A stretch of DNA of 64,000 nucleotides from Trypanosoma brucei (lineage: Eukaryota): contig AL929603.2 in assembly GCA_000002445.1 (NCBI GenBank), positions 192,001-256,000 of the forward strand. The letters run 5' to 3'. Shown here in pieces: positions 45,834 through 47,543 of this stretch (the first letter of the stretch is position 1; every line of letters starts with the position of its first letter). The position numbers were made by a program, and so were the translations under genes. Below the pieces are notes generated by a model. The model did not search any database. It saw only the letters and a list, made by a program, of their open reading frames with translations, and had not been told where the DNA came from.

Positions 45834-47543
45834 TCACTTCAGTTTGGAGTGTTTACCACCTTTTAGTTCCTTCTCCACACTTTGAAGCGATTCCCAAAGG
45901 GAGTCCGGCACCAATTCGCCCAACTCCTGCAACATTTGCCCTTGACACATGTAAAGTACAAAAACAGTTTCAAGAAGCATGCGTTCTTCTTCCCTCCCGA
46001 GAACGGCTTCTGCGCAACCCAGGCGGTTTTTGAGAGCGGCCGCAGACTGACACAGTAACTGAACGGTCTCGTGAGAGGACGGAAGGTATGGTGCATAACA
46101 TCCCAGTATAAGAGCGGCTTCGGGCGACTGTTGTCCGTATACTGCAACTCCCAAATGATATGCGTACTGCAATACGCTACTGGCGCGCTGGTCTCTCAGA
46201 AAATGTAGCAATCTGCCGCATTCTCTACCAACACGAACTGCTTCGGTTGTACGTCGGTCAGCATGCTGATCCGAATTGACAACACGAATCCAAAACTCGG
46301 CAGCCTTTCTAAGTTCTTTACCTTCATTGAGTGCGAGGAACGTCGCGCTCCTGTCGAGCCCCAGCAGTAAATCATTGCTCAACGACAGCTTACGAGCGTT
46401 AAACCACTTCAGCAGCGCCGTCGTGTGACGTACCAATTCGTGTGCTGTGCTGCTTCCCGCGGAGCGCCAACGCCGCGGCCACAACGCCTGAAGAACCTCA
46501 GCACTTCGCAGCAATATGGCATCATCTGCCCCTGTAAGGAGCGCATCGGCGATACAACTATGTATGAAGAGTGAGGAATCCTCCCACCTCTGGCCACAAA
46601 TCCCCAAACCAGTGAGAAACATAACAAACTCCTCTCCCCTCTCACTCCCCACAACAGAGTCTACAACAGCGTAAGGAATGTTTCGAGCGTCAAAGAATGC
46701 CAGGGTTCGCAGCTGTTTTGTTCCATCAGGAAAATGGGATTCAAGCTCATTGAGTGCAACATCAAGGAACACATTGAGCGCGTGGGAAACACTTATGGTA
46801 CCCTCCGCGCCAACCCCTTTTGCCAACAGCAAACTCCGCAGCTCTTCGGGACTGACGGAACCACTTTCCATGAGGCAACAGGCCAAATGCATAAGAATAG
46901 GAACACGACAGACAGCGTGCATCACATCTCTGGTAGAGGATGTGGCTCTCTCCTCTACGTTAATACCCTGTAAAAATTGGTCCGCATCAACCTCTGTGAA
47001 TGAGCCGGCTTTCAGAACGGGTATCTTTAGATTCCCGACTGGATCCGCACTGCTCGTTACCAGTGCGTACACATTCGGATGATCAGGTATTAGTTGAAGA
47101 ACGACCTGCGGGTTTGGCGTGCCATCTACAACGAGCAATACATCCTTCTCCTTCCGCCCCTTCATCGACTGAAAGAACTGTAAAAGATGCGACTCGAGTG
47201 AATCATCCCAGTCGAACCAATGAACACAAGTGAAGCGCCCACTGCGTCGTGCCCGGCTGCAGAACTCCACCGCGATAGTTGTTTTTCCAATGCCGTCCAG
47301 TCCCGCTATTACCTGACAATGTCGTCCCGCTAGTAAGTTCTGCCACAGTTGCATGATTTCCCTCTCGCGCCCAACCACACGGGACGCCACCGGGGCGTCG
47401 AAAAGAATGGGATCTGCCGCCGGAGGATCATCCGACATGCCGATGGTAGTTGCACCTCTTTTGACGCTGCAGCCAAAAGTAGTGGAAGCCGTTTGACCCC
47501 CCGGAAATTTTTTTACACACGCGCGACGAAGCAGCCGCCACAT
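45834..47543 (-). CDS. P-loop NTPase of the STAND/NB-ARC (AP-ATPase) type with helical/TPR-like C-terminal region; possible N-terminal targeting peptide
   Basis: VVGREREIMQLWQNLLAGRHCQVIAGLDGIGKTTIAVEF (Walker A GxxGxGKT with upstream effector-arm-like helix). DVLLVVDG is Walker B-like. NVYALVTSS resembles the sensor-1/RNBS-B hhhhTTR motif. CRVPILMHLA is GLPL-like. About 300 aa of helical repeats follow. Confidence 0.55.
   Translation of the reverse strand: MWRLLRRACVKKFPGGQTASTTFGCSVKRGATTIGMSDDPPAADPILFDAPVASRVVGREREIMQLWQNLLAGRHCQVIAGLDGIGKTTIAVEFCSRARRSGRFTCVHWFDWDDSLESHLLQFFQSMKGRKEKDVLLVVDGTPNPQVVLQLIPDHPNVYALVTSSADPVGNLKIPVLKAGSFTEVDADQFLQGINVEERATSSTRDVMHAVCRVPILMHLACCLMESGSVSPEELRSLLLAKGVGAEGTISVSHALNVFLDVALNELESHFPDGTKQLRTLAFFDARNIPYAVVDSVVGSERGEEFVMFLTGLGICGQRWEDSSLFIHSCIADALLTGADDAILLRSAEVLQALWPRRWRSAGSSTAHELVRHTTALLKWFNARKLSLSNDLLLGLDRSATFLALNEGKELRKAAEFWIRVVNSDQHADRRTTEAVRVGRECGRLLHFLRDQRASSVLQYAYHLGVAVYGQQSPEAALILGCYAPYLPSSHETVQLLCQSAAALKNRLGCAEAVLGREEERMLLETVFVLYMCQGQMLQELGELVPDSLWESLQSVEKELKGGKHSKLK

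Follow-up and report, generated by a model that had tools for sequence, protein, structure and literature searches.

Tb927.1.730 (NDUTB13) of Trypanosoma brucei encodes a mitochondrial NB-ARC-TPR STAND protein that co-fractionates with complex I subunits

The product of Tb927.1.730 of Trypanosoma brucei is an APAF-1/NLR-type (NB-ARC-TPR 'STAND') protein, a structural call first made from the DNA letters by a model (here denoted the sequence-only reading) and supported by the profile and fold comparisons presented here. Gene identity, fold class, motif conservation, membership in the mitochondrial proteome and co-fractionation with NDUFA2 and NDUFA6 form the established part of the picture. Beyond this, we give a somewhat better than even chance to the view that the protein is an imported, minimal NB-ARC-TPR STAND, serving the matrix arm of complex I either as a nucleotide-latched adaptor or as an assembly-type partner. 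Public databases already list the gene together with an NB-ARC tag and a complex I label, so the advance is one of interpretation; what is new is the reading of the fold.

The gene lies in the window, the whole stretch of 64,000 nucleotides that was analysed. Positions 45834-47543 hold a single open reading frame of 569 amino acids on the minus strand, a strand left unstated in the sequence-only reading, and according to the ORF listing its start is the first ATG following the upstream stop.

45834..47543, minus strand: complete CDS of Tb927.1.730 / NDUTB13, 569 amino acids plus a stop at 45834-45836, exact accession match.

Between 20 and 130 nucleotides upstream of the ORF are pyrimidine-rich tracts followed by AG dinucleotides, as expected of a trans-spliced trypanosome gene. 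The product is exactly that of Trypanosoma brucei TREU927 XP_001218776.1 / Q4GZE5, which is Tb927.1.730, and the published RNAi primers for this gene map within the ORF (47296-47315 and 46860-46879). XP_001218776.1 appears as NDUTB13 in Table 1 of PMC12699882, a list of trypanosomatid-specific complex I accessory proteins, and TriTrypDB labels the gene 'complex I subunit, putative'. The locus was also checked for a tRNA or a repeat that might have produced an artefact, and this reading was rejected. The sequence-only reading had remarked that STAND proteins are not an established feature of kinetoplastid biology. Our literature search for an NB-ARC or STAND protein of the mitochondria or complex I of kinetoplastids returned nothing relevant; the UniProt auto-annotation already tags the product of Tb927.1.730 'NB-ARC domain-containing'.

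The protein divides into six regions, as follows.

47412..47543, minus strand: presumed mitochondrial presequence, residues 1-44, basic, disordered and poorly conserved.
47004..47411, minus strand: P-loop nucleotide-binding domain, residues 45-180, with five strands (76-80, 106-111, 135-142, 158-164 and 176-178).
46809..47003, minus strand: helical domain 1 (ARC1), residues 181-245, with four helices in the model.
46524..46808, minus strand: winged-helix domain (ARC2), residues 246-340, with helices in 252-313, a beta-hairpin at 316-327, H328 and a helix at 329-337.
46389..46523, minus strand: post-WHD helical linker, residues 341-385, with the family signature LWPRRWR (354-360) at 46464-46484.
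45909..46388, minus strand: degenerate TPR-like helical solenoid, residues 386-545, with the near-invariant RECGRLLHFLRD at 440-451.

When the T. brucei protein is searched alone, Pfam returns AAA_16, nSTAND3 and NB-ARC, all below threshold and all confined to the P-loop region (PF00931 scores 17.1 bits against a gathering cut-off of 23.5), and in the PDB its best phmmer match, with an E-value of 0.38, is to a dynein AAA module. These values would suit a generic AAA+ or kinase-like P-loop NTPase rather than a STAND protein. NB-ARC nevertheless passes the cut-off in Leishmania, Leptomonas and one divergent orthologue (27.8-29.6 bits) and is matched by 22 of the 29 orthologues at E<0.01; the Pfam matches point to STAND families only, so the P-loop is not placed in an unrelated family. 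The family profile finds AfsR in the PDB at 9e-7, in an alignment that extends through the winged-helix region (residues 246-340). Aligned by hhalign ('-M first -norealign') with 18 NB-ARC-TPR proteins, the family matches motif for motif over 446 columns (99.9% probability, E 3e-35), spanning the nucleotide-binding domain, helical domain, winged helix and TPR; NB-ARC+DUF7779+TPR_10/12 proteins are the nearest relatives outside the family.

The predicted structure agrees. Foldseek places the STAND-TPR protein PH0952 (6e-10) and ADP-bound Apaf-1 (1.9e-9) at the top, then CED-4, Avs4/5 and NRCs, with closed forms fitting the model better (TMq 0.42-0.46) than the open apoptosome (0.27-0.29), and the fold is nearer to STAND NODs than to other AAA+/P-loop classes. 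Within the AF2 model (pLDDT 86.2, pTM 0.81), Walker A lies between strand 76-80 and helix 87-101, the Walker B Asp closes strand 135-142, the sensor-1 residues close strand 158-164, VPLL opens helix 215-226, and His328 comes straight after a beta-hairpin (316-318/324-327) and opens the last winged-helix helix. As modelled, these positions are those required by the ASCE P-loop/NB-ARC fold. The hhalign and fold comparisons together refute a generic AAA+ or kinase-like NTPase, to which we attach practically no weight, and bear out the NLR/APAF-1/bacterial STAND architecture that had been proposed, with the Walker B and sensor positions structurally in place.

Helical repeats had also been proposed for the C-terminal half, which is indeed all-helical. 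The solenoid at 386-545 falls below every Pfam TPR threshold from sequence alone; by fold it matches the TPRs of KLC, LGN and BtubC, and by hhalign it aligns to TPR_10/12 repeats. It is presumed to be the sensor or partner-binding domain. About 44 presequence residues alone precede the NOD, and no family member has an effector or adaptor domain (CARD, TIR, nuclease, protease or HTH); those of 730-886 amino acids have no extra Pfam domain either, which rules out a hidden effector in the longer homologues.

This composition bears on the idea of a death or immune sensor that, like the apoptosome, NLRs or bacterial Avs, oligomerises to activate an effector. The NOD architecture is the same, such proteins are the closest fold matches, and in other eukaryotes cell-death signalling involves mitochondria. 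The absence of any CARD, TIR, nuclease, protease or other effector domain speaks against it, as do the presequence and matrix-arm partners described below and the occurrence of the gene as a conserved, apparently single-copy orthologue rather than an expanded, fast-evolving family. The defence models of PADLOC add nothing beyond a weak P-loop match: an Avs system was rejected, as PADLOC gave no match for the T. brucei protein and only that weak match (E 1e-4) for orthologues, with no effector domain. We consider a death or immune sensor highly improbable.

The nucleotide-binding motifs were compared in an alignment of 29 orthologues and, besides, in about 25 more divergent cluster representatives.

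47277..47303, minus strand: Walker A / P-loop GLDGIGKTT, residues 81-89; G81, D83, G84, G86 and K87 invariant in 29/29.
47121..47138, minus strand: Walker B LLVVDG, residues 136-141; D140 invariant; aligns to LiVvDnV of NB-ARC-TPR proteins.
47049..47069, minus strand: sensor-1 / RNBS-B position YALVTSS, residues 159-165; aligns to VLITTR of NB-ARC-TPR proteins.
46890-46910, minus strand: GLPL-type motif CRVPILM in helical domain 1; V214, P215 and L217 invariant; aligns to LGxLPLaL.
46557-46565, minus strand: MHD-type His328, invariant in 29/29; aligns to lH-lVQ of NB-ARC-TPR proteins.

All the N-terminal motif strings named in the sequence-only reading (P-loop, Walker B, sensor-1 position and GLPL-like box) are present, and they are conserved in about 50 kinetoplastid-type orthologue clusters. 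Ten residues are invariant in the 29-sequence alignment (G81, D83, G84, G86, K87, D140, V214, P215, L217 and H328) and the same pattern holds in the further representatives, indicating that the matches are not due to chance. The GxxGxGKTT P-loop was read correctly: GLDGIGKTT lies between strand 1 and helix 1 of the AF2 model, and GK[ST] is retained by every wider-family representative that covers the region. The VPIL box likewise held up; RVPILM occupies residues 213-218, in the family form [G/C]-x-V214-P215-[L/I]-L217, and its invariant V, P and L align with LGxLPLaL of the NB-ARC-TPR proteins.

Two of the assignments need amending. Walker B had been given as DD/DG; the hhhhD string with D140 is sound, but T. 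brucei has DG, not DD. Position 141, the second acidic site, is D in 18/29, G in 10/29 (T. brucei among them) and S in 1/29, with G in most Trypanosoma and N or Q in some divergent members. The hhhhTSS sensor-1 string (ALVTSS, residues 160-165) is at the right structural position but lacks the canonical arginine, which is absent at position 165 across the family (consensus hhhTT[S/N]; TSS, TTS or TTN). The 'MHD' of the family reads h-H-P/S, without the Asp, and Q or V takes the place of His328 in a small number of divergent environmental members. In the linker signature LWPRRWR, W355, P356 and R358 are invariant, and divergent representatives keep the motif.

The family has so far been found only in kinetoplastid-type sequences, the prokinetoplastid Papus ankaliazontas being among its divergent representatives. 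Searches gave one cluster per species, and Tb927.1.730 appears to be a single-copy, conserved orthologue. From Papus, the other named matches and the absences in Diplonema and Euglena, the family appears restricted to kinetoplastid-type eukaryotes.

The sequence-only reading had also suggested organellar targeting from MWRLLRRACVKKF, which is residues 1-13 of the protein. The first 25 residues contain five K/R and no D/E, and the N-termini of 27 intact orthologues mostly have 4-6 K/R and 0-1 D/E, two having only one K/R. Residues 1-42 have a pLDDT below 50 in the AF2 model, and conservation of the presequence region is low (0.38). The T. brucei MitoCarta includes the protein. The basic, acidic-poor, disordered N-terminus and the MitoCarta listing agree with the suggestion, and together place the protein in mitochondria.

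Evidence for association with complex I comes from the literature, namely the supplements of PMC4798371 and the NDUTB list. In PMC4798371, Tb927.1.730 belongs to the curated reference set 'RespiratomeComplexI', has a high-confidence co-fractionation edge to Tb927.11.16870 (NDUFA2), and falls in predicted complex 15 with NDUFA2 and NDUFA6 (Tb927.10.14860), a sibling cluster of which contains NDUFS1. Further proteins of complex 15 are Tb927.3.3660, Tb927.9.15270, Tb927.10.2230, Tb927.2.4380, Tb927.7.7410 and Tb927.10.7610. The earlier description 'of unknown function' was too strong, because this co-fractionation ties the protein to matrix-arm subunits of complex I. Some observations speak against a place in complex I. 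NDUTB13 is missing from the 11 trypanosomatid-specific subunits detected when bands of in-gel-active complex I from Phytomonas, Novymonas and Sergeia were analysed, no counterpart is listed for Diplonema or Euglena complex I, and a PDB search found no solved structure or T. brucei mitochondrial assembly containing Tb927.1.730. The supplements of PMC7307792 do not include the gene, and it shows no significant change in the ZC3H39/40 respiratome-regulon table.

In the account that we favour, the nuclear-encoded protein would be imported into the mitochondrion through its basic N-terminal presequence, and the mature form would consist of the P-loop domain, helical domain 1, winged helix and degenerate TPR, with no effector. 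An adenine nucleotide would be gripped by Lys87 of Walker A, Asp140 of Walker B and His328 of the winged helix, and the nucleotide-bound module may rest in a closed, Apaf-1-ADP-like state, as the ligand-free AF2 model suggests. Turnover is probably slow or absent, because the family lacks the sensor-1 Arg and in Trypanosoma Gly replaces the second Walker B acidic residue. The protein would then work not as a motor but as a nucleotide-latched adaptor, binding a partner on the peripheral arm of complex I through its TPR-like solenoid and the surfaces specific to the family (LWPRRWR and RECGRLLHFLRD). On that arm it may be an accessory or assembly-type factor that is bound loosely or in sub-stoichiometric amounts.

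The same residues could be those of a fossil enzyme, a STAND fold kept purely as a complex I scaffold, in which any nucleotide is a permanent structural cofactor and no switching occurs, in parallel with the mammalian and Euglena subunits of recruited fold that are compared further on. The family-wide loss of the sensor-1 Arg, the variable second Walker B acidic residue (D/G/S/N/Q), the missing effector domain and the catalytically silent recruited enzyme folds known on the Euglenozoan complex I matrix arm are all consistent with this. On the other side, the Walker A Lys, Walker B Asp and MHD-type His are strictly conserved in very divergent members, which exceeds what a scaffold needs, and the absence of NDUTB13 from purified bands of active complex I is not what one expects of a structural subunit that is tightly integrated. 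We regard a pure scaffold as unlikely.

Phenotypes of Tb927.1.730 mutually conflict. The RIT-seq look-up that the sequence-only reading had suggested yielded a growth defect in 4/4 conditions (bloodstream forms at days 3 and 6, procyclic cells and differentiation), and according to a chromosome-1 screen the growth of bloodstream forms was severely retarded. Targeted RNAi in procyclic cells caused no growth or kinetoplast/nucleus phenotype, and both T. brucei stages studied can reportedly do without complex I. Taken together, these data hint at a role outside complex I. The protein might then be a mitochondrial STAND switch largely independent of complex I and possibly essential, its label being an artefact of co-purification or co-fractionation. 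The RIT-seq defects and the severe bloodstream retardation in an independent screen, the reported dispensability of core complex I subunits, the absence from active bands of three species and low peptide counts argue for this; two independent kinds of experiment (an affinity-purification-derived respiratome list and a co-fractionation network) that tie the protein to complex I, the silent procyclic RNAi and its presence in no solved T. brucei mitochondrial assembly in the PDB argue against it. On this evidence a largely independent role seems quite improbable. A related and doubtful proposal is that NDUTB13 is a working STAND switch in the matrix that gates how the unusual matrix arm of kinetoplastid complex I is assembled, works or is remodelled, or else gates a separate essential process. 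Its input would be the adenylate state of the matrix, or a metabolite or protein ligand sensed through the TPR solenoid, and such a switch would account for fitness defects in cells that can dispense with complex I itself.

Complex I of kinetoplastids is oversized (more than 60 predicted subunits) and poorly understood, its function is debated and no structure exists. If NDUTB13 is a bona fide NB-ARC-TPR nucleotide switch, experiments with mutants, nucleotide binding and TPR partners become possible, and the mismatch between the fitness phenotypes of Tb927.1.730 and the dispensable core subunits may find an explanation. STAND biology gains an organelle-imported, effector-less, single-copy orthologue without the sensor-1 arginine, a natural test of what a NOD-plus-TPR module does alone. 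Should the switch reading be true, this would be the first STAND protein, effector-less at that, shown to act in a respiratory chain.

Several known systems offer comparison. Among complex I subunits with recruited folds are mammalian NDUFA10 (nucleoside-kinase fold) and NDUFA9 (SDR fold) and, at the tip of the Euglena peripheral arm, the PEPCK-like NDUEG2 and MDR-like NDUEG3/5, which are trypanosome NDUTB12/2/3; a literature search turned up no STAND-fold complex I subunit. Like these, NDUTB13 is a catalogued complex I accessory protein with partly degenerate catalytic residues, and its co-fractionation partner NDUFA6 is the scaffold of the recruited-enzyme module in Euglena. Unlike them, it is seen on complex I in no structure and is undetected in the active bands of three trypanosomatids. 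In MalT, the STAND transcription activator of E. coli, a LuxR DNA-binding effector forms the C-terminus and the ligand is known to be maltotriose, whereas Tb927.1.730 has neither such an effector nor a known ligand. The NB-ARC domains of Apaf-1, CED-4 and plant NLRs share only 13-15% identity with Tb927.1.730, which has no CARD, CC or TIR effector, no WD40 or LRR sensor and no Asp in its 'MHD', and which is set in the mitochondrial matrix with respiratory complex partners. The bacterial and archaeal NB-ARC-TPR STANDs (the NOD-TPR of Streptomyces AfsR; Pyrococcus horikoshii PH0952, PDB 6mfv) have the same domain order and share the motifs GRExE, GxxGxGK[ST]T, hhhhD, hhhTT-, G-x-[LV]PL and h-H-x-hh. 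Compared with these, Tb927.1.730 has no SARP, TIR, metallophosphatase or other effector, its TPRs are degenerate and its sensor-1 Arg is replaced by Ser/Asn, whereas it carries a mitochondrial presequence together with the invariant LWPRRWR and RECGRLLHFLRD.

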